This document shows, in pieces, positions 1 to 42,511 of a stretch of 64,000 bases of DNA. Source of the stretch: Escherichia coli 042 (lineage in GTDB: Bacteria; Pseudomonadota; Gammaproteobacteria; Enterobacterales; Enterobacteriaceae); the NCBI RefSeq assembly GCF_000027125.1, contig NC_017626.1; one strand, given 5' to 3'. Made by a program: the position numbers and the translations under genes. A model generated the notes under the pieces. The model saw only the letters and a program-made list of their open reading frames with translations. It searched no databases and was not told the DNA's origin. Position 1 is the stretch's first letter. Every line of letters begins with the position of its first letter.

Positions 1-1
1 G

Positions 2-2449: not shown

Positions 2450-2453
2450 TCCC

Positions 2454-3742: not shown

Positions 3743-3760
3743 TGCAAAATATTTCATGTG

Positions 3761-3790
3761 AAACCGCCTCCGGGCGGTTTTGTCGTTTAT
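3761..3790 (+). terminator. hairpin plus T-rich tract between I and J
   Basis: AAACCGCC / GGCGGTTT inverted repeat followed by TTTTGTCGTTTAT. Confidence 0.4.
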
Positions 3791-3802
3791 GGAGCATGAC
3801 GA

Positions 3803-6800
3803 ATGGGCAAAGGAAGCAGTAAGGGGCATATCCCGCGCGAAGCGAAGGACAACCTGAAGTCCACGCAGTTGCTGAGTGTGATCGATGCCATCAGTGAAGG
3901 GCCGGTTGAAGGTCCGGTGGATGGCTTAAAAAGCGTGCTGCTGAACAGTACGCCGGTGCTGGACAGTGAGGGGAATACCAATATCTCCGGCGTCACGGTG
4001 GTGTTCCGGGCAGGCGAGCAGGAGCAGTCACCGCCGGAGGGATTTGAATCCTCCGGTTCCGAGACGGTGCTGGGTACGGAAGTGAAATATGACACGCCGA
4101 TCACCCGCACCATTACGTCGGCAAACATCGACCGTCTGCGCTTTACCTTCGGTGTACAGGCACTGGTGGAAACCACCTCAAAGGGTGACAGGAATCCGTC
4201 GGAAGTCCGTCTGCTGGTTCAGATACAGCGTAACGGTGGCTGGGTGACGGAAAAAGACATCACCATTAAGGGCAAAACCACCTCGCAGTATCTGGCCTCG
4301 GTGGTGGTGGGTAACCTGCCGCCGCGCCCGTTTAATATCCGGATGCGCAGGATGACGCCGGACAGCACCACAGACCAGCTGCAGAACAAAACGCTCTGGT
4401 CGTCATACACCGAAATCATCGATGTGAAACAGTGCTACCCGAACACGGCACTGGTCGGCGTGCAGGTGGACTCGGAACAGTTCGGCAGCCAGCAGGTGAG
4501 CCGTAATTATCATCTTCGCGGGCGCATTCTGCAGGTGCCGTCGAACTATAACCCGCAGACGCGGCAATACAGCGGTATCTGGGACGGAACGTTTAAGCCA
4601 GCATACAGCAACAACATGGCCTGGTGTCTGTGGGATATGCTGACCCATCCGCGCTACGGCATGGGGAAGCGTCTCGGTGCGGCGGATGTGGACAAATGGG
4701 CGCTGTATGTCATCGGCCAGAATTGCGACCAGTCGGTGCCGGACGGCTTTGGCGGCACGGAGCCGCGCATCACCTGTAATGCGTACCTGACCACACAGCG
4801 CAAGGCGTGGGATGTGCTCAGTGATTTCTGCTCGGCGATGCGCTGTATGCCAGTATGGAACGGGCAGACGCTGACGTTCGTGCAGGACCGACCGTCGGAT
4901 AAGGTGTGGACCTATAACCGCAGTAATGTGGTGATGCCGGATGATGGCGCACCGTTCCGCTACAGCTTCAGCGCCCTGAAAGACCGCCATAATGCCGTTG
5001 AGGTGAACTGGATTGACCCGAACAACGGCTGGGAGACGGCGACAGAGCTTGTGGAGGATACGCAGGCCATTGCCCGTTACGGTCGTAACGTCACGAAGAT
5101 GGATGCTTTTGGCTGTACCAGCCGGGGGCAGGCGCACCGCGCCGGGCTGTGGCTGATTAAAACGGAATTGCTGGAAACGCAGACCGTGGACTTCAGCGTG
5201 GGTGCAGAAGGGCTTCGCCATGTACCGGGCGATGTCATTGAAATCTGCGATGATGACTATGCGGGTATCAGCACCGGCGGGCGCGTGCTGGCGGTGAACA
5301 GCCAGACGCGGACACTGACGCTCGACCGTGAAATCACGCTGCCATCCTCCGGCACCACGCTGATAAGCCTGGTTGACGGACAGGGGAATCCGGTCAGCGT
5401 GGAGGTCCAGTCCGTCACCGACGGCGTGAAGGTAAAAGTGAGCCGGGTTCCTGATGGCGTTGCCGAGTACAGCGTGTGGGGGCTGAAGCTGCCGACGCTG
5501 CGCCAGCGCCTGTTCCGCTGCGTGAGTATCCGTGAGAATGACGACGGCACGTATGCCATCACCGCTGTGCAGCATGTGCCGGAGAAAGAGGCCATCGTGG
5601 ATAACGGGGCGCACTTTGACGGCGACCAGAGCGGCACGGTGAATGGTGTCACGCCGCCAGCAGTGCAGCACCTGACCGCAGAAGTCACCGCAGACAGCGG
5701 GGAATACCAGGTGCTGGCGCGCTGGGATACGCCGAAGGTGGTGAAGGGTGTGAGCTTTATGCTTCGCCTGACCGTGGCAGCGGATGACGGCAGTGAGCGG
5801 CTGGTCAGCACGGCCCGGACGACGGAAACCACATACCGCTTCAGGCAGCTGGCTCTGGGAAATTACAGTCTGACAGTCCGGGCGGTAAATGCGTGGGGGC
5901 AGCAGGGCGATCCGGCGTCGGTATCGTTCCGGATTGCCGCACCGGCAGCACCATCGCGGATTGAGCTGACGCCGGGCTATTTTCAGATAACCGCCACGCC
6001 GCATCTTGCGGTTTATGATCCGACTGTACAGTTTGAGTTCTGGTTCTCGGAAAATCGGATTGCGGATATCAGGCAGGTTGAAACCAGCGCGCGTTATCTT
6101 GGCACGGCGCTGTACTGGATAGCCGCCAGTATCAATATCAAACCGGGCCATGATTATTATTTTTACGTTCGCAGTGTGAACACCGTCGGCAAATCGACAT
6201 TCGTGGAGGCTGTCGGTCGGGCGAGCGATGATGCGGAAGGTTACCTGGATTTTTTCAAAGGCCAGATAACCGAATCCCATCTCGGCAAGGAGCTGCTGGA
6301 AAAAGTCGAGCTGACGGAGGATAACGCCAGCAAACTGGAGGAGTTTTCGAAAGAGTGGAAGGACGCCAACGATAAATGGAATGCCATGTGGGGCGTCAAA
6401 ATTGAGCAGACCGAAGACGGCAGGCATTATGTCGCGGGGCTTGGCCTTAGTATGGAGGATACGGAGGAAGGCAAACTGAGCCAGTTCCTGGTTGCCGCTA
6501 ACCGTATCGCGTTTATTGACCCGGCAAACGGGAATGAAACGCCGATGTTTGTGGCGCAGGGCAACCAGATATTCATGAACGAAGTGTTCCTGAAGTATCT
6601 GACGGCTCCCACCATTACCAGTGGCGGCAATCCTCCGGTATTTTCCCTGACACCGGACGGGCGGCTGACGGCGAAAAATGCCGATATCAGCGGTAACGTG
6701 AATGCGAACTCCGGGACGCTCAATAATGTCACGATTAACGAGAACTGTCGGGTTCTGGGAAAACTGTCCGCGAACCAGATTGAAGGCGATCTCGTTAAAA

Positions 6801-7198
6801 CAGTGGGCAAAGCTTTCCCCCGTGACTCCCGTGCACCGGAACGGTGGCCATCAGGGACCATTACCGTCAGGGTTTATGACGATCAGTCGTTTGACCGGCA
6901 AATTGTTATTCCAGCGGTGGCTTTCAGCGGTGCCAGACATGAACGGGAGAATAGCGATACTTATTCGTCATGCCGCCTGATAGTGAAGAAAAACGGGGCT
7001 GAAATTTATAACCGAACGGCTCTGGATAATACTCTGATTTACACGGGTGTTATTGATATGCCTGCAGGCAGTGGCGTAATGACACTGGAGTTTTCGGTAT
7101 CAGCATGGTGGGTAAATGGCTGGTATCCCACAGCAAGTATCAGCGATTTGCTGGTTGTGGTGATGAAGAAAGCCACCGCAGGCATCAGTATCAGCTGA
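3803..7198 (+). CDS. host specificity protein J (central tail fibre), lambda J-like
   Basis: 1131 aa (lambda J is 1132 aa); C-terminal region resembles the recalled lambda J receptor-binding end ([21 protein letters not shown] motif). Confidence 0.85.
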
Positions 7199-7216
7199 AT
7201 TTTATAACCCCAATAC

Positions 7217-7241
7217 GGGCGTCAGAAATGACGCCTTTTTT
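7217..7241 (+). terminator. rho-independent terminator after J
   Basis: GGGCGTCA-GAAA-TGACGCC hairpin followed by TTTTTT. Confidence 0.5.
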
Positions 7242-7265
7242 ATTGCAGAAAAGCGAGAGGTAATT

Positions 7266-7865
7266 ATGCGTAAATTATGTGCTGTTATTCTGTCCGCAGT
7301 AGTCTGGCTGGTTGCCGCTGGTACGCCAGCGAGCGCAGCAGAGCATCAGTCCACACTAAGCGCCGGGTATCTTCAGGCCCATACTGATATGCCAGGCAGT
7401 GATGACCTGAAGGGCATTAACGTGAAATACCGTTATGAATTTACGGACACGCTGGGGCTGGTGACGTCATTCAGTTATGCCAATGCCAAAGATGAGCAAA
7501 AAACGCATTACAGCGATACCCGCTGGCATGAAGATTCAGTGCGTAACCGCTGGTTCAGCATGATGGCGGGGCCATCTGTACGCGTGAATGAATGGTTCAG
7601 TGCTTATGCGATGGCAGGTGTGGCTTACAGCCGTGTTTCGACGTTCTCCGGGGATTATCTCCGCGTAACTGACAACAAGGGGAAAACGCACGATGTGCTG
7701 ACCGGAAGTGATGACGATCGCCACAGCAACACGTCTCTGGCGTGGGGAGCTGGCGTGCAGTTTAACCCGACCGAATCCGTGGCCATTGATATTGCTTATG
7801 AAGGCTCCGGCAGTGGCGACTGGCGCACTGACGGTTTCATCGTGGGTGTCGGTTATAAGTTCTGA
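7266..7865 (+). CDS. lom: Lom/Ail/PagC-family outer membrane beta-barrel protein (lambda lom-like moron)
   Basis: 199 aa; signal peptide ending ASA; C-terminal ...GVGYKF aromatic terminus typical of OMPs; position between J and stf as in lambda. Confidence 0.8.
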   Translation: MRKLCAVILSAVVWLVAAGTPASAAEHQSTLSAGYLQAHTDMPGSDDLKGINVKYRYEFTDTLGLVTSFSYANAKDEQKTHYSDTRWHEDSVRNRWFSMMAGPSVRVNEWFSAYAMAGVAYSRVSTFSGDYLRVTDNKGKTHDVLTGSDDDRHSNTSLAWGAGVQFNPTESVAIDIAYEGSGSGDWRTDGFIVGVGYKF

Positions 7866-7892
7866 TTAGCCAGGTAACACAGTGTTATGACA

Positions 7893-7918
7893 GCCCGCCG
7901 GTTCAGGCGGGCTTTTTT
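7893..7918 (+). terminator. rho-independent terminator after lom
   Basis: GCCCGCCG-GTTCA-GGCGGGC hairpin followed by TTTTTT. Confidence 0.5.
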
Positions 7919-7923
7919 GTGGA

Positions 7924-10305
7924 GTGGATATGGCAGCAGTAAAAATCTCAGGTGTGCTGAAAGATGGTGCGGGAAAACCAATACAGAACTGCACTATTCA
8001 ACTGAAGGCAAAGCGTAACAGCACCACGGTACTGGTGAACACGGTGGCCTCTGAAAATCCGGATGAAGCCGGGCGTTACAGCATGGATGTTGAGTATGGT
8101 CAGTACAGCGTCACCCTGCTGGTTGAAGGTTTTCCGCCTTCACATGCCGGGACCATTACCGTCTATGAAGGTTCCAGACCAGGTACGCTGAATGATTTTC
8201 TCGGTGCCATGACGGAAGATGATGTCATGCCGGAGGCATTGCGTCGTTTTGAGGAAATGGTGGAAGAAGCGGCACGCAACGCTGAAGCCGCCTCTCAGAG
8301 CGCAGCGGCGGCAAAGAAATCCGAAACTGCAGCGGCATCATCGAAGAACGCGGCGAAAACCTCAGAAACGAATGCAGCTAACAGCGCACAGGCGGCAGCG
8401 GCCTCGCAGACTGCATCGGCAAACTCCGCAACAGCAGCTAAAAAATCAGAAACCAACGCGAAAAATAGCGAGACAGCCGCAAAGACGAGCGAAACCAACG
8501 CAAAGTCCAGCCAGACGGCAGCGAAGACCAGCGAAACGAATGCCAAAGCCAGTGAAACTGCGGCAAAAAACAGCCAGGTTGCAGCAGCCCAAAGCGAGAG
8601 CGCGGCAGCCGGTTCTGCGACTTCAGCAGCTGGATCAGCAACTGCTACGGCTAACAGCCAGAAAGCTGCGAAGACGAGTGAAACTAACGCAAAGTCCAGC
8701 CAGACGGCAGCGAAGACCAGCGAAACGAATGCCAAAGCCAGTGAAACTGCGGCGAAAAGCAGTCAGGATGCAGCGGCTCAAAGCGAGAGTGCCGCAGCCA
8801 GTTCTGCAAGCGCGGCGGCTGCTTCTGCCACTGCATCAGCTAACAGTCAAAAAGCAGCAAAAACCAGTGAAACCAACGCAAAGGTGAGCGAAACAGCGGC
8901 AGCGAACTCAGCGAAAGCATCGGCAGCAAGCCAGACGGCAGCTAAAGCAAGCGAAGATGCAGCCAGAGAGTACGCAAGCCAGGCTGCGGAGCCGTATAAA
9001 TATGTCTTACAGCCGCTGCCTGATGTGTGGATACCATTTAACGATTCGCTGGATATGATTACGGGCTTTTCGCCGTCATATAAAAAAATTGTTATTGGTG
9101 ACGATGAAATAACGATGCCTGGCGACAAGATTGTTAAGTTTAAACGTGCATCGAAAGCAACCTATATTAACAAATCTGGTGTGCTGACAGAGGCTGCCAT
9201 TGACGAGCCACGATTTGAACGTGATGGCCTGCTTATTGAGGGGCAAAGAACAAACTACATGCTCAATTCGGAAAGCCCTGCCAGTTGGGGGCGATCTTCA
9301 AATATGGATGTGCCCGAAACAGGGACGGATAATTTTGGTTTTACCTATGGAAAGTTTGTCTGCAACGATTCTCTGATTGGGCAAACCTCAGCCATTAATA
9401 TGGCATCAATTGCTGCAACAAAGTCAGTTGATGTCTCAGGCGATAATAAACACGTGACAACCTCATGTCGTTTTAAAACAGAACTGCAGGTAAGGTTGCG
9501 TATCCGGTTTGATAAATATGACGGTAGCGCAACAACTTTTCTTGGTGATGCGTATATTGATACACAAACGCTTGAAATTAATATGACAGGCGGTGCTGCC
9601 TCAAGGATTACAGCGAGAGTCAGAAAGGACGAAGCTACCGGATGGATTTTTGCAGAGGCAACAATTCAGGCAATTGATGGGGAGCTAAAAATAGGCTCTC
9701 AGATACAGTATTCTCCTAAGCAGAGCGGGGCAACCGTATCTGGTGACTATATTTATCTGGCCACCCCACAAGTAGAAGATGGGCCTTGTGTATCATCTTT
9801 TATTATATCAGGAGCGACGGCGGCGACCCGCGCAAGCGATATAGTTACAGTTCCAATTAAGAATAATCTTTATAATCTTCCTTTTACGGTTCTTTGTGAG
9901 GTACATAAGAACTGGTATAAAACGCCAAATGCAGCGCCACGTGTTTTTGATACCGGCGGTCATCAAACCGGAGCGGCTATTATTCTTGGCTTCGGTCGTT
10001 CAACAGATTACGACGGATTTCCTTATTGCGATATTGGAGGAGCTAACAGACGGGTAAACGAAAACGCATCGCTTGAAAAAATGGTTATGGGGATGCGTGT
10101 AAAGTCAGAGCAGTCTACGTGCTCAGTAAGTAACGGGCATATATCCAGCGAAACAAAAACCACATGGTCCTGTATTCAGAACACCGCAATTATCCGTATT
10201 GGAGGCCAGACTACAGCCGGGTTACGTCATTTATTTGGTCATGTCAGGAATTTCAGAATATGGCACAAGGCATTGACTGATGCTCAGGTGGGGGAGTCAA
10301 TCTAA
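7924..10305 (+). CDS. side tail fibre protein (Stf-like) with collagen-like Ala/Ser/Thr repeat shaft and divergent C-terminal domain
   Basis: N-terminal ~100 aa match the recalled lambda Stf N-terminus (MA.VKISGVLKDG.GKP.QNCTIQLKA...); KTSETNAK repeat shaft; C-terminal half (from ~nt 9000) visibly lower GC. Confidence 0.75.
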   Translation: MDMAAVKISGVLKDGAGKPIQNCTIQLKAKRNSTTVLVNTVASENPDEAGRYSMDVEYGQYSVTLLVEGFPPSHAGTITVYEGSRPGTLNDFLGAMTEDDVMPEALRRFEEMVEEAARNAEAASQSAAAAKKSETAAASSKNAAKTSETNAANSAQAAAASQTASANSATAAKKSETNAKNSETAAKTSETNAKSSQTAAKTSETNAKASETAAKNSQVAAAQSESAAAGSATSAAGSATATANSQKAAKTSETNAKSSQTAAKTSETNAKASETAAKSSQDAAAQSESAAASSASAAAASATASANSQKAAKTSETNAKVSETAAANSAKASAASQTAAKASEDAAREYASQAAEPYKYVLQPLPDVWIPFNDSLDMITGFSPSYKKIVIGDDEITMPGDKIVKFKRASKATYINKSGVLTEAAIDEPRFERDGLLIEGQRTNYMLNSESPASWGRSSNMDVPETGTDNFGFTYGKFVCNDSLIGQTSAINMASIAATKSVDVSGDNKHVTTSCRFKTELQVRLRIRFDKYDGSATTFLGDAYIDTQTLEINMTGGAASRITARVRKDEATGWIFAEATIQAIDGELKIGSQIQYSPKQSGATVSGDYIYLATPQVEDGPCVSSFIISGATAATRASDIVTVPIKNNLYNLPFTVLCEVHKNWYKTPNAAPRVFDTGGHQTGAAIILGFGRSTDYDGFPYCDIGGANRRVNENASLEKMVMGMRVKSEQSTCSVSNGHISSETKTTWSCIQNTAIIRIGGQTTAGLRHLFGHVRNFRIWHKALTDAQVGESI
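8461..8900 (+). repeat. in-frame 189-bp tandem direct repeat (~2.3 copies) inside the side tail fibre gene
   Basis: CAAAGTCCAGCCAGACGGCAGCGAAGACCAGCGAAACGAATGCCAAAGCCAGTGAAACTGCGGC occurs at 8501 and 8690; unit starts near 8461, 8650, 8839. Confidence 0.75.
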
Positions 10306-10586
10306 TGAAAGATTTAACACTCAAATTTGCCGACAGGGCCGACTTTTCGGCCTTTATGGATAGCACTGGCTATTATGATGACGAGTCGATGCAGGATGAT
10401 ATTCTTATTGACGTGATAGGTAACGTGTACAAAGAAACCGGAGAACTGACTGAAGATGGCGAACCGGTATGTGTTAAGGAAGACGGATATTTTGTAAACG
10501 TGCGCATCATTAATGATTCGCAAATATCGTCATTATTCGATGAATACGTGGTTGCTGTTGAGCATCAACTTCGTGGCTGGATGTGA
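10305..10586 (+). CDS. hypothetical protein, translationally coupled to the tail fibre gene (possible fibre assembly/chaperone factor)
   Basis: 93 aa acidic protein; ATG overlaps the stf stop (TAATG); no recognised motif. Confidence 0.4.
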   Translation: MKDLTLKFADRADFSAFMDSTGYYDDESMQDDILIDVIGNVYKETGELTEDGEPVCVKEDGYFVNVRIINDSQISSLFDEYVVAVEHQLRGWM

Positions 10587-10595
10587 GGAAGAAAA

Positions 10596-11636
10596 ATGGC
10601 TACATCGACAGTAATTCCTGATGACATCAAAACGCTAAAATCCGACGTTAGCAAATTAAAAAACGATCAAGGAAGCTACGCAACAAAATTATATGTAGAC
10701 AGCAAAGATGAAATCGTTGGTGACTGGTCTGCTTCATGGTATCAGCAGGTATTGCCAACTAGCGGAGCTATATTTGGGAGAAAACTCCGCTCAACTCACA
10801 GGACGGCAGGTGTTGAGGATGCGTATTGCGAACTATACCTCAAAAAATGGATAGACAGTCCAGGTAACGCAATGGCGCGCCTTAACCTGAACGATAACGG
10901 GACAAACATTTGCTGGGACTTTACCAACCTTTATGGCGGTACGATGATTTTTCCCGGTGACAGCGGATACCTCAAAATGGGTAACTGCCTTATGTCATAC
11001 AGCAAGCGTGGAAGTAACGCGCTTATTAAATTTGATTACACCGACACATTACAGATCAAATATGCCAATCATGGGTCAACCATGACATTAAACACACAGG
11101 GAACCGCTTATGCTGGTGTTACTGCTCAATTGTGGGGCAACACCAGCCGTCCTGTTGTTTATGAAGTCGGTGTTGATGGTGGCGCTTATATGTTCTATGC
11201 GCAGAAAAATACCGATAACACCTATATGTTAAGCGTTAATGGTGCATGTCATGCCACCGCATTTAACCAGCATTCCGACCGGGATCTGAAAGACAACATT
11301 CAGGTGATCGATAATGCAACCGACCGCATCCGTAAAATGAACGGCTATACATACACGCTTAAAGAAAACGGTATGCCCTATGCTGGTGTCATTGCACAGG
11401 AAGCTCTGGAAGCAATCCCAGAAGTTGTAGGTTCCGCAATGAAATATCAGGACGGTGCGAGCGGATCGGAAGGTGAAGAAGGTGAACGTTATTACACAGT
11501 AGATTATTCTGGTGTTACTGGCTTGCTTGTTCAGGTAGCCAGAGAGTCAGACGACAGAATAACAGCACTGGAAGAAGAAAACGCAGAATTAAGACAAAGA
11601 TTATCTGCAATTGAGGCGGCGCTTGCGTCTAAATAA
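10596..11636 (+). CDS. tail fibre/spike protein with C-terminal intramolecular chaperone (peptidase S74-like) domain
   Basis: 346 aa; GAGGAAG SD upstream; C-terminal HSDRDLKDNI motif matching the S-D-x-R-x-K-x-N-I autocleavage signature, followed by a coiled-coil tail. Confidence 0.6.
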   Translation: MATSTVIPDDIKTLKSDVSKLKNDQGSYATKLYVDSKDEIVGDWSASWYQQVLPTSGAIFGRKLRSTHRTAGVEDAYCELYLKKWIDSPGNAMARLNLNDNGTNICWDFTNLYGGTMIFPGDSGYLKMGNCLMSYSKRGSNALIKFDYTDTLQIKYANHGSTMTLNTQGTAYAGVTAQLWGNTSRPVVYEVGVDGGAYMFYAQKNTDNTYMLSVNGACHATAFNQHSDRDLKDNIQVIDNATDRIRKMNGYTYTLKENGMPYAGVIAQEALEAIPEVVGSAMKYQDGASGSEGEEGERYYTVDYSGVTGLLVQVARESDDRITALEEENAELRQRLSAIEAALASK

Positions 11637-11642
11637 TATTAA

Positions 11643-11665
11643 GGGGCCGAGCGCCCCGTTTTATT
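11643..11665 (+). terminator. hairpin plus T tract after the fibre gene
   Basis: GGGGCCGAGCGCCCCG followed by TTTTATT. Confidence 0.4.
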
Positions 11666-11678
11666 GGGTAGGATGAAA

Positions 11679-11972
11679 ATGGATATAACACCTTTCCTTC
11701 ATGCGCTTTGTGCTGTGGCTGCGCAGCTACTGATTGGTCTTTTTACCGGGAACTGGGCTTACGGGGCGATAGCCGGTTGTACGTTCTTCATTGCGCGTGA
11801 ACACACCCAGGCAGAATATCGCTGGATCGAAATGTTCGGGCATGGCAAGCGAATGAATATGCCGTGGTGGGGCGGTTTTGATCCGCGTGCATGGGATGTG
11901 GCAAGCCTGATGGATTTTGCTGTGCCGGTGGTGGCGTGTCTGCTGGTCTGGCTGTTGGTTAATCGTGGGTGA
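11679..11972 (+). CDS. small hydrophobic (probably membrane) protein, unknown function; prophage moron position
   Basis: 97 aa from the ATG with AGGA 6 nt upstream (longest frame from 11664); two to three hydrophobic segments; no known motif. Confidence 0.4.
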   Translation: MDITPFLHALCAVAAQLLIGLFTGNWAYGAIAGCTFFIAREHTQAEYRWIEMFGHGKRMNMPWWGGFDPRAWDVASLMDFAVPVVACLLVWLLVNRG

Positions 11973-12323
11973 AAAAAGGTGAGCTGTATATGCAACGGAG
12001 GAAGAAACCCCGTTGCTGGAAGCCTGGAAAAAGTATCGGATGCTGCTGAACCGTGTTGATACATCAACTGCACCTGATATTGAGTGGCCTACGAACCCTG
12101 TCAGGGAGTAATCATTGGGATTATGCCGCAGAAACGTTGTATGCAATAACGTTCTGCGGTTGGCTGATGCACTTTCGAGAGTGCATGTATTGAATTATTT
12201 CCAGCTATTATCGATTTTACGTATTTTTTGCATGAGAGAATTTGTACCTCCTCCCAACAACGACCTTCCATGACTTTCCGGACTTCTGTGGGCCAGCGGA
12301 CGATGCTGCCCTCGGATGTTGTG

Positions 12324-13181
12324 CTAATTGGGTGATGACAAATCCTGTGTATGGGTGTTTCCCTTTGTGCGTGCGTTGATGCTGGTAACGGTGAACGTCA
12401 TGATGAACACAACCGCGAATAAGACGACAATCGTCGGAGCTGGTGCACTGTCGATAAAAAAGGACAACCAGACACCAGTCATTGACACTATTACCGATAT
12501 GCCAATCGCCAGTAGGAGCGCAATATGAAAGCGTTGTGTCAGGAGTACCGCAATGGCGCCAGGCGCAATGAGCAGAGAAATGGAGAGAATGATACCTACC
12601 GCTTTCAGCGTCGCCACAATGGTCAGAGAGACCATGCACAGCAGCCCATAATGCAGACATCTCGTATGCAAACCGCTTACCTGCGCCTGTTGATAATCAA
12701 AGCTGAACAGCAAAAAATCCCGCCATTTTACGCTAATAACAAGTGTAACCAACCCGGCAATAATCACCGTCTGGATTATATCGCCGATGGTTACCCCGAG
12801 CATGTCGCCGAAAAGAATATGGTCAAGATGTACGTCTGGTTTGACTGCAATATACAAGATCAGACCTGCGGCAAACATGCCAGAAAAAACAATCCCCATC
12901 ACTGTATCTTGCTTGATTCGGCTGTTGTCTTTCAGGTATCCCGTCGCCACCGCGCAGAATACTCCGGCGACGAATGCCCCTGTAGCCAGAGGTAACCCCA
13001 GAATCCAGGCAAGCACGATGCCAGGAAAAACCGCATGACTCATCGCGTCACCCATCAGTGCCCAACCTTTCAGGACCAGAAAGACCGACAGCAGCGCACA
13101 GGGTATGGAAACTACCAGTGAAATCAGCAGTGCGTGACTCATAAAGGTGAACTGCAGTGGCTCCAGTAATAATGCCATCAT
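12324..13181 (-). CDS. sitD: Mn/Fe ABC transporter permease SitD
   Basis: 285 aa polytopic membrane protein; second of two paralogous permeases; 4-nt overlap with sitC. Confidence 0.85.
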   Translation of the reverse strand: MMALLLEPLQFTFMSHALLISLVVSIPCALLSVFLVLKGWALMGDAMSHAVFPGIVLAWILGLPLATGAFVAGVFCAVATGYLKDNSRIKQDTVMGIVFSGMFAAGLILYIAVKPDVHLDHILFGDMLGVTIGDIIQTVIIAGLVTLVISVKWRDFLLFSFDYQQAQVSGLHTRCLHYGLLCMVSLTIVATLKAVGIILSISLLIAPGAIAVLLTQRFHIALLLAIGISVIVSMTGVWLSFFIDSAPAPTIVVLFAVVFIMTFTVTSINARTKGNTHTQDLSSPN

Positions 13182-14035
13182 GAGCGATCCTCCAGCGCTT
13201 TATGCGCACGCCGACGATTTGCCAAAAGCCCATGGGTGGGCGCAAATACAAATGCTAAAAGAAACAGCAGTGTCTGCGCCACCACGATGATTCCACCTGT
13301 CGCGCCGTCCAGAAAGTAACTGACCCACGCGCCGAGGAAACTGGTTACACTGCCAATAGTTACAGCAATTATGAGCAGGCGGGGAAAATGATCGGTTAAC
13401 AACCATGCTGTTGCACCGGGAGTCACCACCAGACAGATCACCAGAAAGGCACCAACCGTTTGCAGCGCCGCAACGGTCGAAACCGACAGCAGGGTGAAGA
13501 AGAGGATTTTTAATCTGCCCGGATGCAATCCAATAGCACGAGCGTGATTCTCGTCGAAAAAGGTCACCATAAGATCTTTCCATTTGAAAAAAAGCACGAT
13601 GATCGAGAGAATGCCAATGATAGTGAGTTGCAGGATATCCGCCGGATCGATTGCCAGAATATTGCCCAGGACGATGGTCTGAATGTTCACGGATGTCGGG
13701 TTCAATGACACCATAAACAGCCCCAGGCCAAAAAAGGAGGAGAAGATCAGGCCGATGATGGCATCTTCTTTTAAGCGAGTGCGTTGGTTAAGAAACAGCA
13801 TGCTGCCCGCTGCCAGTCCGCCGGAAAAGAAGGCTCCCAGAGAAAACGGAAGCCCCAGCATATATGCCCCCGCAACACCCGGGACAATAGAGTGCGACAG
13901 CGCATCGCCAATCAGCGACCAGCCTTTTAGCATCAGATAGCATGACAGGAAAGCGCAGAGACCGCCGACCATCGCCGAGACCCACATCGCATTGAGCATA
14001 TATTCATAGCTGAAGGGTTCCAGTAGCACGTTCAT
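13178..14035 (-). CDS. sitC: Mn/Fe ABC transporter permease SitC
   Basis: 285 aa, ABC-3 type permease; overlaps sitB and sitD ends. Confidence 0.85.
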
Positions 14036-14859
14036 CTTGCTTCCCCCTGCACCGCTGACGGTCGATGTGCCACAAAAGGGTGTTCATCGTCAGTAATAAT
14101 GCTTTCTTCCGAGCCGTTAAGTGTGACATGGCGCAGTACGCCGCTAAAAGCCAGCTCCAGGTTCTCGGCTGTAAAAGTGGTGTCTGTCGGCCCGCTTGCC
14201 AGGACGGTGCCTTTGACCATGACCGTATAATCGCAAAATGTCGTGACTGAGCCGAGATTGTGCGTTGAGACAAGCATCGTCTTGCCTTCCGCGCGTAACT
14301 CCCTCAACAGGCTGATGATTTTCGCTTCGGTTTTCACATCAACGCCGGTAAAAGGTTCATCCAGCAGGATCACATCACCCTGCTGTGCAATCGCTCTCGC
14401 CAGAAAGACGCGTTTCTTTTGTCCACCGGAAAGCTCGCCGATTTGTCGATGGCGAAAATCCACCATATCGACACGTTCCAGCGCATCGGTGACAATCTGA
14501 CGATCCCTCTTTTTGGCTATACGCAACATACCCATGTGCCCATAGCGGCCCATCATCACCACATCTTCCACTAGTACAGGAAATGACCAGTCAACCTCTT
14601 CTGACTGAGGGACGTAGGCAACCAGGTTTTTCTGTAGCGCCTGTCGCGTGGGAATACCCAGAACAGATATCTTTCCGCTGGTCAGACGGACAAATCCCAT
14701 AATCGCTTTAAACAACGTCGATTTTCCGGAACCGTTTACCCCAACCAGAGCGGCAATAGATCCACTTGGTACTGTGAAGGATGCATCGCGCAGTGCTGTG
14801 TGCCCGTTACGCCAGGTGACAGTAACATCATTAACGACAATGCCCGCAGATTGCATCAT
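14032..14859 (-). CDS. sitB: Mn/Fe ABC transporter ATP-binding protein SitB
   Basis: 275 aa; Walker [13 protein letters not shown] signature LSGGQKKR, Walker B ILLDEP. Confidence 0.9.
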
Positions 14860-15773
14860 TATTTCTCCCTTTTCCCGGCTTTAATTCCCTGTACCAGCGT
14901 ACTGGTAGTAACCTTCAGAAGGTCGATATACGTAGGTACCGGGCCGTTTTCTGTGCTCAGGGAATCGACATAGAGTACACCGCCGTAGTGCGCGCCGGTT
15001 TCACGCGCAACCTGACGCGCTGGTTTATCGGAAATCGTACTCTCGCTAAAGACTGCCGGGATATGATTTTTCTTCACCATATCAACAACCTTACGTACCT
15101 GCTGCGGCGTGCCTTGTTGATCGGCATTAATCGGCCACAGATAAAGCTCTTTTAGCCCCAAATCGCGTGCGAGATAAGAAAAAGCCCCTTCACTGGTGAC
15201 CATCCATCGCTGATTCTCAGGGAGTTCAGCAATCTGCTTACGCAGGGGGGCAAGGGTTTGGGTAATCTTGGCTTTATAAGTATCGGCATTACGTTGGTAG
15301 GTTTGTGCATTTGCCGGATCGTATTTTATCAACGCATCACGAATATTATCGACATAAATCAGAGCATTATCTGGCGACATCCAGGCATGGGGGTTAGGTT
15401 TGCCCTCATAGGGTCCTTCGGTGATCCCTACTGGCGTCACACCCGAAGAGACAATTACTTCTGGAACCCCATTGAGATGTTGGTAAAAGCGTTGGAACCA
15501 CAATTCCAGATTCATACCATTGGCGAGAATCAGTTGTGCCCCCTGCGCACGTTTAATATCTCCAGGGGTAGGCTGATACTCATGAATTTCTGCACCAGGC
15601 TTGGTTATGGATGAGACTTCTGCAGCATCTCCAGCCACGTTTTTGGCCATATCCGCGATGATGGTAAATGTTGTAATGACCTTGAATTTTTCAGTTGCAC
15701 TTGCCTGAAATGCGATCGAGCAGGTGAGGGCGAGGCACCCCAAGAGCATGGTTACTTTTTTTATTGAGTGCAT
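14859..15773 (-). CDS. sitA: periplasmic Mn/Fe-binding protein SitA (cluster 9 / TroA-like)
   Basis: 304 aa with signal peptide; first gene of a four-gene co-directional operon. Confidence 0.85.
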
Positions 15774-15804
15774 AATTTAGTACCTATAGTGAGCAAAATT
15801 AGAA

Positions 15805-15828
15805 AAAACATAGCAACAGCTATGTTTT
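15805..15828 (-). promoter_or_regulatory. MntR-type operator upstream of sitA
   Basis: Palindrome AAAACATAGC-AACA-GCTATGTTTT, 32-55 bp upstream of the sitA start; matches the recalled E. coli MntR box (AAACATAGC...GCTATGTTT). Confidence 0.6.
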
Positions 15829-15849
15829 ATAGCATAAGCCATGCAAAAT

Positions 15850-15868
15850 GAAAATGATTATCATTAGC
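15850..15868 (-). promoter_or_regulatory. Fur box-like site upstream of sitA
   Basis: GAAAATGATTATCATTAGC resembles the Fur consensus GATAATGATAATCATTATC, ~80-95 bp upstream of sitA. Confidence 0.5.
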
Positions 15869-15981
15869 GGTTGTGGGCCCAACACAGGGATTAGGTTGTT
15901 TCCTGCTGGCGATGTGGTATTGAGGAAAAAATTAGGGCAGCTATTAGGCTTTGAAATGACTTTATGAGGAGAATTGTTGAT

Positions 15982-16032
15982 GGCAAAAATGGGGCAAAGC
16001 GCTGCAAAAGGGGCAAAAAAGGGGCAAAAAAA
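15982..16032 (+). repeat. short tandem GGGGCAAA(A) repeats (4-5 copies)
   Basis: GGCAAAAA, GGGGCAAAG, GGGGCAAAAAA, GGGGCAAAAAAA in tandem; overlap a 22-codon Lys-rich mini-ORF (15980-16048) with a GAGGA SD 9 nt upstream. Confidence 0.4.
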
Positions 16033-16331
16033 GAGTGGGTTATCGTAGCTTATTGTTGTCGCTGATGATGTTTAACACATTGAAAAATAAGTAAAATACT
16101 TATGAGTCAGAGAGTTGTGATTTTTGCCCTTACTTGTTCAGATTGTATTGTTCTTTCTTACTAATTTCTTGATTTTGCGACATTTAAAAGCGACTCAATT
16201 CGTTATATGGCATCAGAAGAGTATGCGTCATGCCGGAAAGCCCAGCATAAGAAATCTGATATAAAAACTGTGGCGTGTATGGTACGGATTAGAGGGGAAA
16301 ATGTCAGCACATTTGCGAAATGAATCAAAAA

Positions 16332-16351
16332 GCCCGCAGCAATGTGCGGGC
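16332..16351 (-). terminator. hairpin immediately downstream of uspF
   Basis: GCCCGCA-CATTGC-TGCGGGC on the minus strand followed by TTTTTGATT. Confidence 0.5.
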
Positions 16352-16358
16352 GTTAGTG

Positions 16359-16874
<516 letters not shown>

Positions 16875-16933
16875 TTAGATCAAAGGAGGAAGAATAAGCA
16901 GAAAAAGCCCGCCATAACAGCGGGCAGGAGGAT

Positions 16934-18067
16934 TTAGAACTGATAAACCAGACCTAAAGCGACAATATCATCGGTAGAGATGCCGTTGGCAGCGTAGAAG
17001 CTGTCATCTTCATCCAACAGGTTGATTTTATAGTCAACATAGGTGGACATGTTTTTATTGAAATAGTAAGTCGCGCCAACATCGGCGTATTTAACCAGAT
17101 CTTTATCATCAACACCTGCCGGGTTGTCTGCACCACCGGCAGCGTGCAGGTCACGGCCTTTAGACATCAGGAAAGAGACTGCCGGACGCAGACCAAAATC
17201 AAACTGGTACTGTGCAGTAACTTCAAAGTTCTGGGTTTTGTTTGCAACAGCATAATCGCTGTCGCCAAACGGGGTCATATTACGCGTTTCTGAATACATG
17301 GTTGCCAGGTAAATATTGTTAGCATCGTATTTTAGCCCAGCAGTCCACGCGTCTGCTTTATCACCACCCGCCGCAGTATGGTTAACCTGGTCATTGGTGC
17401 GGTCAGAAGAGGTGTATGCCGCACCAGCGCTAAAGCCCATGCCTAAATCATATGTTGTGGAAAGACCCCAGCCGTCACCGTTTTCATGGCGAACATCACG
17501 TCCGTTGTTGGTGCCTTCCTGACCATTACTGGCACCTTCGTTGTTACCTTGATACTGCACCGCGAAGTTCAGACCATTTACCAGACCGAAGAAATCAGTA
17601 TTACGATAAGTCGCGACGCCATTGGCACGACCAGTCATAAAGTTGTCTGCATTGGTATAAGAGTCACCGCCAAATTCAGGCAGCATATCGGTCCAGCCTT
17701 CGATGTCGTACATTACGCCATAATTACGTCCGTAATCGAAAGAACCGTAATCTGCAAATTTCAATCCGGCAAATGCCAGACGGGTCCATGACTGGTTTTT
17801 TGAGGATTCAGTGTTGTTTGCCTGAATATTGTATTCCCATTGACCGTAGCCAGTGAGTTGATCGTTAATTTGCGTTTCGCCTTTAAAACCCAGACGCGCA
17901 TAGCTCTGGTCGCCATCTTTCGCTGAATTATCAGAAAAATAATGCAGGCCATCAACTTTGCCATACAGATCTAATTTGTTGCCGTCTTTATTATAAACTT
18001 CGGCTGCATGTGCAGCACCTGCGGCGAGCAGGGCAGGAATTAAAAGTGCCAGTACTTTGCTTTTCAT
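16934..18067 (-). CDS. ompN: outer membrane porin OmpN
   Basis: 377 aa general porin (OmpC/F family); signal peptide; C-terminal ...LVYQF. Confidence 0.85.
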
Positions 18068-18294
18068 TGAATAAATCCTTTAGTTATTTTATTTGCCTTT
18101 TATCCCCATTTCGGGGAGTGAAAACATCCTAAAGGAGATGTTCAGTTAGCCGATAAATATCATTTGTTACGCCTTAAGTAAAACCTTAATCAAATAATTC
18201 TTCTGAAATGATAATAAGTCTGGTGAATGTATTGGAGATAATACATACAAAATAAAAATTATACTTTTAATTTGCTATACGTTATTCTGCGCGG

Positions 18295-18404
18295 GTTATA
18301 TGCCTTTATTGTCACAGATTTTATTTTCTGTTGGGCCATTGCATTGCCACTGATTTTCCAACATATAAAAAGACAAGCCCGAACAGTCGTTCGGGCTTTT
18401 TTTT
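18295..18404 (+). ncRNA. micC: MicC small regulatory RNA
   Basis: Sequence GTTATATGCCTTTATTGTCACAG...GCCCGAACAGTCGTTCGGGCTTTTTTTT matches the recalled MicC; terminator hairpin plus T-run; located between ompN and ydbK as in K-12. Confidence 0.8.
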
Positions 18405-18432
18405 AGAATTGGATAATTCTTATCCAGAGCAT

Positions 18433-24016: not shown

Positions 24017-24223
24017 AAGACTTTCTCCAGTGATGTTGAATCACATTTAAGCTACTAAAAATATTTTACAAAATTTCAAATATAATTGAAAGCTATGGCG
24101 ATATTGAAAAATTCATCAACAACTATGCTTAGTGTAGGCGCAACCTTCAACTGAACGGTTAAACATGCCACAATACCCGTATTGAATGCTTAATTTTTCG
24201 CTAAATCAGGATATTAACTACCC

Positions 24224-26863
24224 ATGCTGGGTAAATATAAAGCCGTTCTCGCGCTGTTATTACTGATTATTCTTGTGCCGTTGACGCTGCTGATGACGCT
24301 CGGCTTGTGGGTTCCCACGCTGGCGGGCATCTGGCTACCGCTCGGGACACGTATTGCATTAGATGAAAGCCCACGCATTACGCGTAAAGGTTTAATCATT
24401 CCCGATCTCCGTTATCTGGTGGGAGATTGTCAGCTTGCGCATATCACCAACGCCAGCCTTTCACATCCCAGCCGCTGGTTATTGAACGTCGGCACGGTAG
24501 AATTTGATTCTGCTTGTCTGGCGAAATTGCCGCAGACGGAGCAATCGCCAGCTGCTCCAAAAACCCTCGCGCAGTGGCAGTCCATGCTGCCTAACACCTG
24601 GATCAATATCGATAAACTGATTTTTTCTCCCTGGCAGGAATGGCAGGGAAAACTCTCTCTCGCATTAACCTCTGATATTCAGCAACTGCGTTATCAGGGC
24701 GAAAAAGTTAAATTTCAAGGCCAGCTGAAAGGGCAACAACTTACAGTCAGCGAACTGGATGTCGTCGCGTTTGAAAATCAGCCGCCGGTTAAACTGGTGG
24801 GGGAATTTACTATGCCGCTCGTGCCGGATGGACTTCCTGTAAGTGGGCATGCTACTGCGACGTTAAACTTGCCGCAGGAACCGTCACTGGTGGATGCAGA
24901 GCTGGACTGGCAGGAAAATAGCGGGCAATTGATTGTGCTGGCACGGGATAACGGCGATCCGTTGCTCGATTTGCCGTGGCAAATTACTCGTCAACAATTG
25001 ACCCTAAGCGATGGTCGCTGGAGCTGGCCGTATGCAGGTTTTCCTTTGAGTGGCCGACTGGGTGTCAAAGTCGACAACTGGCAGGCAGGGCTCGAGAACG
25101 CTCTGGTCAGCGGACGACTTAGTGTGCTGACCCAGGGGCAAGCGGGTAAAGGCAACGCGGTGCTAAATTTTGGCCCAGGAAAATTAAGCATGGATAACAG
25201 CCAGCTGCCTATGCAACTGACCGGTGAAGCGAAACAGGCGGACCTCATTTTATATGCCCGTTTACCTGCGCAGCTAAGTGGAAGTCTGACTGACCCAACG
25301 CTGGCCTTTGAGCCAGGCGCGTTATTACGTTCGAAGGGAAGAGTCATCGATTCGCTGGACATCGATGAAATCCGCTGGCCTTTAGCGGGTGTAAAAGTCA
25401 CCCAACGTGGTGTTGACGGACGTTTGCAGGCCATTTTGCAGGCGCATGAAAATGAACTGGGCGATTTCGTGCTGCATATGGATGGGCTGGCGAATGATTT
25501 TCTCCCTGACGCTGGCCGCTGGCAGTGGCGCTACTGGGGAAAAGGCAGTTTTACACCGATGAATGCCACCTGGGATGTTGCAGGAAAAGGTGAGTGGCAT
25601 GACAGCACGATTACGCTGACCGATCTCTCCACCGGTTTCGACCAGTTACAATACGGTACGATGACGGTAGAAAAGCCGCGATTAATTCTCGACAAGCCCG
25701 TCGTCTGGGTACGTGACGCACAGCATCCCTCCTTTAGCGGCGCGCTGTCACTGGACGCCGGGCAAACGCTGTTCACTGGCGGCAGTGTGTTACCGCCATC
25801 AACCTTAAAATTTAGCGTCGATGGACGCGATCCGACGTATTTCCTATATAAAGGCGATTTACATGCTGGTGAGATTGGCCCGGTTCGGGTAAATGGTCGC
25901 TGGGACGGTATTCGTCTGCGCGGTAACGCCTGGTGGCCTAAACAATCACTGACCGTATTCCAGCCGCTGGTGCCACCCGACTGGAAGATGAACTTACGCG
26001 ATGGCGAACTGTATGCTCAGGTCGCATTTTCTGCTGCGCCTGAACAAGGATTCCGCGCGGGAGGGCACGGTGTGTTGAAAGGCGGTAGTGCCTGGATGCC
26101 AGATAATCAGGTTAACGGTGTCGATTTTGTCCTGCCTTTCCGTTTTGCCGATGGAGCCTGGCATCTGGGGACTCGCGGCCCCGTTACGTTGCGAATTGCC
26201 GAAGTGATTAATCTGGTGACAGCGAAAAATATTACGGCTGATTTGCAAGGGCGCTATCCGTGGACAGAAGAAGAACCATTGTTGTTGACTGATGTTAGCG
26301 TCGATGTGTTAGGCGGTAACGTGCTGATGAAACAATTACGTATGCCGCAACATGACCCGGCGCTGTTGCGGCTGAATAATCTCTCATCCAGCGAACTGGT
26401 TAGCGCCGTCAATCCGAAACAATTCGCCATGTCCGGGGCATTTAGTGGTGCATTGCCGTTATGGCTAAACAACGAAAAATGGATAGTGAAAGATGGTTGG
26501 CTGGCAAATAGCGGGCCAATGACCTTGCGGCTGGATAAAGACACCGCAGATGCGGTGGTAAAAGACAATATGACTGCGGGTTCAGCAATTAACTGGTTGC
26601 GCTATATGGAAATTAGCCGTTCATCGACAAAAATTAATTTAGATAATCTCGGTTTATTAACCATGCAGGCCAACATTACAGGTACCAGTCGCGTTGATGG
26701 TAAAAGCGGTACGGTAAACCTTAATTACCATCACGAAGAGAATATTTTTACGCTGTGGCGCAGTTTACGCTTTGGCGATAATCTCCAGGCATGGTTGGAG
26801 CAGAACGCGCGTCTGCCGGGAAATGACTGTCCGCAAGGAAAAGAGTGTGAGGAAAAACAATGA
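24224..26863 (+). CDS. ydbH: large envelope protein YdbH (AsmA-like/DUF748 family)
   Basis: 879 aa with N-terminal TM anchor; followed by ynbE-ydbL as in K-12. Confidence 0.75.
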   Translation: MLGKYKAVLALLLLIILVPLTLLMTLGLWVPTLAGIWLPLGTRIALDESPRITRKGLIIPDLRYLVGDCQLAHITNASLSHPSRWLLNVGTVEFDSACLAKLPQTEQSPAAPKTLAQWQSMLPNTWINIDKLIFSPWQEWQGKLSLALTSDIQQLRYQGEKVKFQGQLKGQQLTVSELDVVAFENQPPVKLVGEFTMPLVPDGLPVSGHATATLNLPQEPSLVDAELDWQENSGQLIVLARDNGDPLLDLPWQITRQQLTLSDGRWSWPYAGFPLSGRLGVKVDNWQAGLENALVSGRLSVLTQGQAGKGNAVLNFGPGKLSMDNSQLPMQLTGEAKQADLILYARLPAQLSGSLTDPTLAFEPGALLRSKGRVIDSLDIDEIRWPLAGVKVTQRGVDGRLQAILQAHENELGDFVLHMDGLANDFLPDAGRWQWRYWGKGSFTPMNATWDVAGKGEWHDSTITLTDLSTGFDQLQYGTMTVEKPRLILDKPVVWVRDAQHPSFSGALSLDAGQTLFTGGSVLPPSTLKFSVDGRDPTYFLYKGDLHAGEIGPVRVNGRWDGIRLRGNAWWPKQSLTVFQPLVPPDWKMNLRDGELYAQVAFSAAPEQGFRAGGHGVLKGGSAWMPDNQVNGVDFVLPFRFADGAWHLGTRGPVTLRIAEVINLVTAKNITADLQGRYPWTEEEPLLLTDVSVDVLGGNVLMKQLRMPQHDPALLRLNNLSSSELVSAVNPKQFAMSGAFSGALPLWLNNEKWIVKDGWLANSGPMTLRLDKDTADAVVKDNMTAGSAINWLRYMEISRSSTKINLDNLGLLTMQANITGTSRVDGKSGTVNLNYHHEENIFTLWRSLRFGDNLQAWLEQNARLPGNDCPQGKECEEKQ

Positions 26864-42227: not shown

Positions 42228-42253
42228 CCCTGCTATTTGCCTGATAAATCTCA

Positions 42254-42507: not shown

Positions 42508-42511
42508 TAGT

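Follow-up and report, generated by a model that had tools for sequence, protein, structure and literature searches.

Between the tail-fibre genes of a prophage and a set of chromosomal genes, the 64,000-nucleotide stretch of Escherichia coli 042 DNA analysed here (the window) carries four co-oriented genes, sitD, sitC, sitB and sitA, on the minus strand (Table 1). The ORF list places them exactly where the initial annotation had put four overlapping minus-strand genes; successive overlaps are 1, 4 and 4 bp, the four genes are translationally coupled, and the predicted SitA, SitB, SitC and SitD proteins are 304, 275, 285 and 285 amino acids long, respectively.

Table 1. Features at the sit locus and at the right end of the prophage that carries it (positions in the window; strand left empty for unoriented features)
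Feature	Position	Strand	Basis or remark
Right arm of Rac-family lambdoid prophage	1-16159	+	Collinear with KK19-02 prophage
Side tail-fibre genes (793, 93 and 346 aa)	7924-11636	+	ORFs; NCBIfam phage spike-fibre domain
Small membrane-protein gene	11679-11972	+	97 aa from ATG, 102 aa from upstream TTG
tfa (tail-fibre-assembly) 3' remnant, pseudogene	11992-12111	+	RefSeq: incomplete, N-terminus missing
Lambdoid b-region backbone spacer with stem-loop at ~12125-12160	12125-12277		Phage similarity
sitD, permease	12324-13181	-	ORF list, profile search, RefSeq naming in relative
sitC, permease	13178-14035	-	ORF list, profile search, RefSeq naming in relative
sitB, ABC ATPase	14032-14859	-	NF011630 equivalog and ATPase motifs
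sitA, periplasmic metal-binding protein, cluster A-I	14859-15773	-	YfeA match and ligand set
MntR-type operator palindrome, AAACATAGC-N4-GCTATGTTT (putative)	15806-15827		Half-sites as K-12 mntH
Fur box, GCTAATGATAATCATTTTC (putative)	15850-15868	-	17/19 matches to consensus GATAATGATAATCATTATC
Rac-type attP arm (P arm) with three GGGGCAAA repeats at 15991, 16010 and 16021	15981-16142		K-12 Rac similarity
attR core, TTGTATTGTTCTTTCTT, 17 bp	16143-16159		Common to attB, attL and attR
Displaced native ttcA 5' end	16142-16195	-	Translation; 17 codons MSQNQEISKKEQYNLNK, then stop in phage DNA
uspF, first chromosomal gene beyond prophage	16359-16793	-	NF011581 302.6 bits vs cutoff 166; annotation

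The identity of the operon is shown by several matches. SitB scores 589.6 bits against the equivalog model for Mn/Fe ABC ATP-binding proteins (NF011630, cutoff 393), spanning 1-273/274, and it contains the ATPase motifs that had been noticed earlier (Walker A GVNGSGKS at residue 40, LSGGQ at 143 and Walker B VILLDE at 163). SitC and SitD are 35.5% identical and so are paralogues, as had been proposed. SitA aligns with the YfeA structure 5uxs at E = 1e-124, gapless across residues 24-297, and also matches MntC (2e-104) and a Salmonella SitA fragment (3e-86); YfeA and MntC are its closest solved structures. The YfeA alignment places the SitA ligand positions at H64, H129, E195 and D270, the YfeA ligands being H76, H141, E207 and D282. 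A genome 99.8% identical to the window has the four genes named sitA, sitB, sitC and sitD in RefSeq.

Could the operon be a zinc importer of the Znu/Adc type instead? The sit proteins do match the AztC, AztB, ZnuA and ZnuB models weakly, but all of these matches fall under the curated cutoffs (68.3 bits vs 268 for the ZnuA model and 73-78 bits vs 284 for the ZnuB model), whereas SitB clears the Mn/Fe equivalog. SitA is far closer to YfeA than to ZnuA (E ~1e-13), its third ligand position is Glu rather than a third His, and a search of SitA for a His-rich loop found none (at most one His in any 20 amino acid window). Its nearest solved structures are YfeA and MntC, as stated above, and the operator motifs upstream of sitA (below) are of the MntR and Fur types, not Zur. 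From the below-cutoff Znu scores, the SitA ligand set and the similarity to YfeA we reject the znu-type identity, which is extremely improbable; homology to znu-type systems had been named as the finding that would overturn the Mn/Fe assignment, and it came out negative (NF011630, ligand set). By homology, positions 12324-15773 are thus an intact sitABCD operon, predicted to encode an ABC importer for Mn2+ and Fe2+ that depends on a periplasmic binding protein. Its binding-protein fold family, ligand set and four-gene organisation are common to Yersinia pestis YfeABCD, Salmonella SPI-1 SitABCD and cyanobacterial MntABC, but those are chromosomal or pathogenicity-island loci, whereas the sit operon in the window is phage cargo (below).

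Upstream of sitA there are predicted operators for both MntR and Fur, recognised at the level of motifs. The half-sites of the putative MntR palindrome are identical to those of the palindrome that lies 13-34 bp upstream of K-12 mntH, and phage 21 retains the palindrome, from which the plasmid copy of the operon (below) departs at one position. The putative Fur box is the sole site with three or fewer mismatches in the 64-kb window, and phage 21 has the identical box; in infant-gut lambda phages a Fur box has been reported ahead of the sit genes that they carry (PMC6969025). Although these host-type operators are present, a simple scan called no sigma-70 promoter of consensus quality upstream of sitA, and on the minus strand it found no canonical intrinsic terminator within 200 bp past sitD. 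Because neither signal was called, the idea that the operon has its own promoter and terminator rests on the operator motifs and on published expression from another prophage: in the LF82 Perceval lysogen sitABCD, there termed a moron, is transcribed above the prophage background (PMC9928086).

The last intact phage ORF ahead of sit encodes the small membrane protein. It is a hypothetical protein in the annotation of the relative described below, and its product is 95% identical to the phage 21 "putative membrane protein" CPT_21_24, which likewise lies directly ahead of sitD; the tail-fibre genes before it are named "prophage tail fiber N-terminal domain" and "tail fiber domain-containing protein" in that relative. 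The initial annotation had described a gap of about 350 bp between this last called ORF and sitD; the size is right (351-352 bp), but the interval is not empty, since it contains the tfa remnant and the b-region spacer. The tfa remnant matches the 3' end of K-12 tfaR at 90% identity, and an intact tfa that ends at the same point is present in the record SPF_0923. The spacer has counterparts in lambda (24161-24308), HK97 and Stx phages at 83-85% identity, and its hairpin (-23.7 kcal/mol, z = -3.3, plus strand) lacks a U tract. Between 11972 and 12324, where an att site or core chromosomal gene would have placed sit outside the prophage, we found neither; the interval is phage DNA, made up of the tfa remnant and lambdoid backbone.

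The right end of the prophage was located by a three-way alignment of the empty ttcA-uspF site (attB), the attL of a near-identical lysogen and the window (attR), the alignment to an uninterrupted chromosome having been proposed earlier as a check. The sequence to the left of the 17 bp core differs from attB and that to its right is identical to attB, which puts attR on the far side of sit, 370 bp beyond sitA. Empty-site genomes align to the window only from 16134 onward, and in them ttcA is joined straight to uspF with no sit between. The displaced ttcA fragment is identical to the ttcA N-terminus of one such genome, GF3-3, and is the equivalent of K-12 ttcC. A search of the window for a tRNA integration target found none; the target is ttcA. 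To the left of the core the P arm matches the right end of K-12 Rac at 98% identity from 15981 onward, and its GGGGCAAA motif also occurs twice on the int side of attL in the KK19-02 prophage. Since the attR core lies beyond sitA, sit is, as judged from this alignment, inside the att-bounded prophage.

The nature of that prophage follows from its relatives. Window positions 1-18375 are collinear at 97.5% identity with an annotated prophage of E. coli KK19-02, in which intR and xisR lie beside ttcA and are followed by recET, racC, kilR, sieB, the lysis genes, trkG and the terminase, capsid and tail genes. The window holds the right arm (the tape-measure end, tail tip, J, Lom, tail fibres, cargo slot and attR) and the left part lies outside it, so that attL, int and xis are described here from this collinear relative, which is 97.5% identical over 18.4 kb and is not the same genome. 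By this comparison the carrier is a full-length prophage related to K-12 Rac and inserted into the 5' end of ttcA; the lambdoid prophage assignment of the initial annotation is borne out and can be refined to a Rac-family element at that site. K-12 Rac has in common with it the ttcA 5' site beside uspF-ompN-micC-ydbK and the P arm, and K-12 Rac genes intR, xisR, recET, racC, kilR, sieB and trkG are also present in KK19-02, but K-12 Rac is without most structural genes, unlike this element. The two also differ in the slot between tfaR and the P arm, which holds pinR, ydfK and ynaM in K-12 Rac and sitABCD in the window. Lambda and HK97 have the flanking spacer and no sit. From these sequence comparisons sit is a dispensable insert, replaced or absent at the same position in related phages.

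The same cassette occurs in many other phages. At least 27 phage records contain it, covering at least 80% of the query at 97.6-98.8% identity, among them phage 21, Perceval, Lambda_ev phages and ECOR-induced PhiR phages. The closest known systems are phage 21 (OL657228), Perceval (OV696612), the infant-gut Lambda_ev phages and EAEC 042 prophage 042p3; the lambdoid sit phages share with the window the same 3.65-kb cassette (97.6%), its slot, its orientation converging on the tail fibres, and the Fur and MntR boxes. In phage 21, for example, the side tail fibre/membrane-protein genes are on one side of sit and attP/int on the other. That phage integrates at icd, however, whereas the carrier in the window has a ttcA-specific P arm and a predicted ttcA-specific integrase, and the phage 21 spacer homologous to 12142-12277 is upstream of sitA while that of the window is downstream of sitD. 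The best phage match, SPF_0923, was rejected as virion evidence: it is the only phage-collection record that joins a Rac-type P arm to sit, but it also holds uspF, ompN and part of ydbK and is a mis-bounded prophage prediction. On ColV/ColBM-type plasmids the operon and its upstream operator region are 96.7% identical over window 12295-15987; this slightly more divergent allele, whose MntR box carries the single mismatch mentioned above, is flanked by IS1 and a Tn3-family remnant, lies beside aerobactin genes and is without phage flanks. Among 5426 complete E. coli genomes, 2383 (~44%) contain sit and 501 (~9%) have the exact sit-attR junction of the window.

We conclude, with a probability of about 0.93, that a Rac-family lambdoid prophage, inserted into the 5' end of ttcA, carries the intact sitABCD operon in its b-region slot as an accessory (moron) cargo; free lambdoid phages with other integrases have the cassette in this position too, which fits this reading. 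Three other arrangements were weighed against it. That sit is a chromosomal island abutting the prophage, outside attR, might be suggested by its strand, opposite to that of the tail genes, and by its distance of ~350 bp from the last called ORF, but the attR core lies past sit, the empty-site genomes join ttcA to uspF directly, and there is phage DNA on both flanks of sit; the att alignment and the empty-site genomes refute it, and we consider it highly improbable. A secondary insertion from a ColV-type plasmid by an IS or transposon, in place of long-standing carriage by phages, is quite improbable. There are 1060 plasmid copies of sit, the copy on plasmid A of strain D10 has a Tn3-family fragment and IS1 at its flanks, and the segment shared with plasmids ends sharply at window 12295 and 15987. 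However, a search of the cassette ends in the window for transposon signatures (terminal inverted repeats, flanking direct repeats or IS) gave only short chance-level matches, with no IS, terminal inverted repeat or target duplication there; the window copy is nearer to phage copies (97.6-98.8%) than to plasmid copies (96.7%), and the cassette is present in phage 21, isolated in the late 1950s, as well as in many lambdoid phages with other integrases.

The alternative that deserves most weight, although we think it unlikely, accepts that sit is inside the bounds of an old prophage and holds that this element is a decayed, non-excising remnant, so that sit is in effect a fixed chromosomal island. 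The tfa pseudogene directly adjoins sit, K-12 Rac, with the same site and P arm, is a known defective prophage, the exact junction is common to 501 genomes, which fits vertical inheritance, and among the phage matches listed there is no virion-derived record with both a Rac-type arm and sit. On the other hand, the gene set of the KK19-02 prophage is complete (int, xis, recET, repressor region, replication, lysis, terminase, portal/capsid, tail and tail fibres), the att core and arm repeats are intact, and close sit-bearing lambdoid phages have been recovered as plaque-forming or induced virions.

If sit is moron cargo of this Rac-family prophage, how would it act? By analogy with related systems, SitA would bind Mn2+ or Fe2+ through His64, His129, Glu195 and Asp270 and hand the metal to a channel formed by a SitC/SitD heterodimer, with a SitB dimer supplying the power. 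In the lysogen the operon would probably be transcribed from its own promoter and be repressed by MntR-Mn and Fur-Fe, so that metal scarcity would switch it on whatever the state of the phage repressor; other sit systems suggest that the lysogen may thereby gain metal uptake and peroxide resistance, which would favour retention of the prophage. Recombination of the att cores by Int/Xis would excise sit and allow it to be packaged with the phage. During lytic growth late read-through from the tail operon would be antisense to sit, because sit converges on that operon. Since the tfa gene beside sit is a remnant, the tail-fibre module of the prophage may be impaired.

The suggestion first made from the sequence of the window, that of a sit moron at the tail-distal end of a lambdoid prophage, agrees with deposited phage genomes and published descriptions. 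Carriage of sit by lambdoid phages is in fact a common and already published arrangement, not a new inference: it was described as phage cargo in EAEC 042 in a publication of 2010, 70% of the infant-gut lambda phages that were sequenced carried sitABCD (PMC6969025, 2020), and it is cargo of the LF82 prophage Perceval (PMC9928086, 2023). A literature search found no papers naming both sitABCD and "Rac prophage". As a discovery the cargo role therefore matters little, being published and annotated in deposited phage genomes including that of phage 21; what the analysis usefully provides is a clean annotation of the locus, with the exact right end of the prophage, a gap that is phage DNA and a carrier that is a full-length Rac relative, together with the scale given by the shares of E. 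coli genomes that have sit and that have the exact Rac-site junction.

The ends of the cassette are sharp, lying ~20-30 bp past the sitD stop and ~185-215 bp upstream of sitA, and the same backbone spacer is found on opposite sides of the cassette in the window and in phage 21. The sit cassette might be a discrete module that lambdoid b-regions have acquired on more than one occasion, which we regard as improbable. The opposite-side spacer resembles a circular permutation; it might reflect an intermediate that was circular or tandem, or illegitimate recombination that took place repeatedly at the conserved b-region hairpin. Repeated entry, if true, would mean that sit spreads by a specific route, as yet undescribed, between phages whose integrases differ and also onto plasmids.

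The initial annotation took four minus-strand genes beyond the prophage tail fibres to be sitABCD, an Mn/Fe ABC importer, and this was borne out as follows: The ORF listing gives the four genes at the positions proposed, with overlaps of 1, 4 and 4 bp, so the genes are translationally coupled; SitB carries Walker A (GVNGSGKS, residue 40), signature (LSGGQ, 143) and Walker B (VILLDE, 163) motifs, and SitC and SitD are paralogues (35.5% identity). Along its whole length SitB fits NCBIfam equivalog NF011630 ("manganese/iron ABC transporter ATP-binding protein"), scoring 589.6 bits (curated cutoff 393 bits). A Megablast search of 5,426 complete E. coli genomes showed 99.8% identity of the region to strain KK19-02, whose RefSeq gene names here are sitA, sitB, sitC and sitD. 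But could this be a zinc (znu-type) importer? In the NCBIfam search the sit proteins scored well under the curated cutoffs of the zinc models ZnuA, ZnuB and AztA/B/C. The solved structure nearest SitA is Yersinia YfeA (E = 1e-124, gapless across residues 24-297); others are cyanobacterial MntC (2e-104) and a Salmonella "Fur regulated Salmonella iron transporter" fragment (3e-86), and ZnuA proteins reach only about 1e-12 to 1e-19. Alignment to YfeA, by its ligand numbering, places the SitA ligands at His64, His129, Glu195 and Asp270, and no His-rich loop was found in the SitA sequence. The equivalog score, the sub-cutoff zinc models, the YfeA-like ligands and the RefSeq names thus rule out the zinc alternative and, as judged by homology, the operon is sitABCD of the Mn/Fe type.

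Coordinates of features in the window and, where L001 is given, in that segment of the KK19-02 prophage
Feature	Position	Strand	Remark
sitA	15773..14859	-	304 aa, ORF listing
sitB	14859..14032	-	275 aa, ORF listing
sitC	14035..13178	-	285 aa, ORF listing
sitD	13181..12324	-	285 aa, ORF listing
MntR-type palindrome	15806-15827		AAACATAGC-N4-GCTATGTTT, perfect; upstream of sitA
Fur box	15850-15868		GCTAATGATAATCATTTTC, 17/19 consensus matches; upstream of sitA
Tail-fibre-assembly gene without N-terminus	11992-12111		RefSeq annotation
attR core	16143-16159	.	17-mer; attB/attL/window alignment
Displaced native ttcA 5' end	16195..16142	-	MSQNQEISKKEQYNLNK then stop; 17-codon stub at attR, translation
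MicC	18292-18412	+	Rfam gathering-score hit
RydC	48107-48170	-	Rfam gathering-score hit
sok (hok/sok-type antitoxin RNA)	48731-48882	-	Rfam gathering-score hit
trkG	L001 32966-34423		KK19-02 prophage, outside window
816-aa P-loop NTPase-fold gene	L001 40804-43254		KK19-02 prophage, outside window

Is the operon inside the prophage? An att site or core chromosomal gene between 11972, where the last called phage ORF ends, and 12324 would place it outside, and annotation and sequence comparison of that interval found neither. The spacing of about 350 bp first described was right (351 bp), but the interval is not empty: it holds a tail-fibre-assembly (tfa) remnant that shares 90% identity with the terminal part of K-12 tfaR and stops where the intact tfa of a related prophage stops, followed at 12125-12277 by DNA 83-85% identical to intergenic b-region sequence from lambda (24161-24308), from HK97 and from many Stx phages. 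A stem-loop in this DNA is stable (-23.7 kcal/mol, z = -3.3). Since phage DNA fills the interval, the reading of sit as a moron stands on this side.

On the other side lie uspF (NF011581), ompN, MicC and ydbK, which border Rac on its right in K-12. The Megablast breakpoints are decisive for the prophage end: alignment of the window begins only at 16134 in empty-site genomes (ttcA directly adjoining uspF) and at 15981 in K-12 with Rac, and plasmid sit copies span 12295-15987. In a three-way alignment with the empty site of strain GF3-3 (attB) and the KK19-02 prophage junction on the integrase side (attL), attL equals attB through TTGTATTGTTCTTTCTT and then diverges, whereas the window differs from attB until this 17-mer and is identical past it; this opposite divergence defines the attR core. 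With its start codon at 15773, sitA begins 370 bp inside this boundary, so the entire operon is within the prophage, and a location outside is refuted. The native ttcA start (MSQNQEISKK...) is stranded at attR as a counterpart of K-12 ttcC, and at attL (KK19-02, L002 6145-6234) the phage supplies a surrogate 5' end (MKENQQITKK...), so a lysogen keeps an intact ttcA, preceded by upstream DNA that comes from the phage. Three of only five window copies of GGGGCAAA are in the Rac-type P arm (15991, 16010 and 16021, within 15982-16029), and two copies occur on the integrase side of attL, ~25-45 bp into the phage from the ttcA start (KK19-02, L002); these repeats are candidate arm-type Int binding sites.

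The window is collinear over 1-18375 (97.5% identity) with the KK19-02 prophage, which is ~53 kb as estimated from coordinates, appears complete, and has intR, xisR, ralR, recT, recE, racC, kilR, sieB, a repressor region, ydaV-type replication genes, genes for holin, lysozyme and spanin, trkG, and genes for terminase, portal, P22-type capsid, lambda-type tail, J, Lom and side tail fibres. This element is thus related to K-12 Rac, which is defective, but is full-length. Between tfaR and the P arm that both share, Rac has pinR, ydfK and ynaM, and the window has sitABCD in that slot, as would be expected of an exchangeable cargo position. The potassium transporter gene trkG is present in K-12 Rac as well, and the 816-aa gene, which separates the replication region from the late region and is on the opposite strand, may have a defence role or be additional cargo.

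A search of 50,697 phage records gave 27 in which at least 80% of window 12100-16140 is covered, with identities of 97.6-98.8%, including the classical lambdoid phage 21 (OL657228), LF82 phage Perceval, the infant-gut Lambda_ev series and the PhiR phages (recorded hosts ECOR13 or E. coli C). Phage 21 matches the lambdoid moron reading, with the same cassette beside its tail-fibre module: its side tail-fibre gene is followed by a small hypothetical gene, by the gene for a membrane protein of 97 aa (95% identity to the 11679-11972 product) and by opposite-strand sitD-C-B-A, and after these come a few small ORFs, attP (at icd) and int. The best-scoring record, "Salmonella phage SPF_0923" (ON032529.1), was rejected as virion evidence because it contains chromosomal uspF, ompN and part of ydbK (the pyruvate-flavodoxin oxidoreductase gene) and is thus a mis-bounded prophage prediction; it was deposited as a "complete phage genome", but with ~98.8% identity to the E. 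coli window it is doubtfully labelled as Salmonella.

The shared sit segment has sharp ends (window 12304-15957 for phage 21, 12295-15987 for plasmids), and its neighbours on D10 plasmid A are a Tn3-family fragment on one flank and IS1 on the other, beside aerobactin genes. No terminal inverted repeats, target duplication or IS were found at the cassette ends in the window. A spacer homologous to 12142-12277 is upstream of sitA in phage 21 (11650-11781) and downstream of sitD in the window, which implies at least two different junction histories; such differing junctions fit ordinary lambdoid mosaic recombination, and a dedicated mobilisation mechanism is quite unlikely. The phage 21 spacer junction is within the conserved hairpin, in its loop, and this b-region hairpin may be a module-exchange hotspot. 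A comparable hairpin immediately precedes the P arm of K-12 Rac on the left.

The MntR half-sites AAACATAGC and GCTATGTTT are identical to those of a palindrome 13-34 bp upstream of K-12 mntH, which is the validated MntR operator, and no other Fur-box match in the 64-kb window is as good as GCTAATGATAATCATTTTC. Both sites are conserved in phage 21; in the plasmid copy the MntR box carries a single mismatch. By analogy with the Sit/Yfe/MntC family, SitA would take up periplasmic Mn2+ or Fe2+ and dock on a SitC/SitD heterodimer, with ATP hydrolysis by a SitB dimer powering import. MntR-Mn and Fur-Fe would repress the operon, and metal limitation or oxidative stress would de-repress it independently of the phage repressor; the lysogen would gain and the prophage would thereby be favoured. 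Int/Xis recombination of the cores would remove the operon with the phage, and late read-through antisense to sit is predicted because sit converges on the late operon. Simple scans called no consensus sigma-70 promoter upstream of sitA and no intrinsic terminator after sitD, so expression of the operon from its own promoter is inferred, with experimental support from other prophages only. Sit transcription was 4-5-fold over prophage background in an LF82 lysogen of Perceval, whose sit operon was termed a moron (Misson et al. 2023, PMC9928086).

The sit-in-lambdoid-prophage arrangement is already known and widespread. Chaudhuri et al. (2010) described sitABCD as prophage cargo in EAEC 042. Of the infant-gut lambda phages that Mathieu et al. 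(2020, PMC6969025) sequenced, 70% had it, in every case with an upstream Fur box, and they counted it as a moron. Of the 5426 complete E. coli genomes, 2383 have the operon, at 1682 places on chromosomes and 1060 on plasmids; an exact-junction probe (sitA 5' end, P arm, core and ttcA remnant) is covered at least 80% in 501 genomes, and the tail-fibre type is shared too in 262. A literature search for papers naming sitABCD together with "Rac prophage" found none, and the pairing of sit with a Rac-type integration module is all that this locus adds.

The same prophage arm has a second moron of a classical lambdoid kind, a Lom/Ail/OmpX-family outer-membrane protein gene (7266-7865, +) located after J and before the side tail fibre. 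The 793-aa side tail-fibre protein (7924-10305, +) has a long low-complexity stretch rich in Ala/Ser/Thr/Glu/Asn/Lys, with repeated SETNAK/SQTAAK units; at the DNA level the repeat offset is ~189 bp, with an AT skew of up to 0.43 across 8001-9000. A 768-aa ORF (29631-31937, +) had no NCBIfam match at E <= 0.001. MicC, RydC and sok are expected chromosomal small RNAs of the region. Window 42001-44700 (low GC, 0.39-0.40) has four plus-strand ORFs (130, 152, 125 and 234 aa) with no NCBIfam family match, and may be a small horizontally acquired islet.
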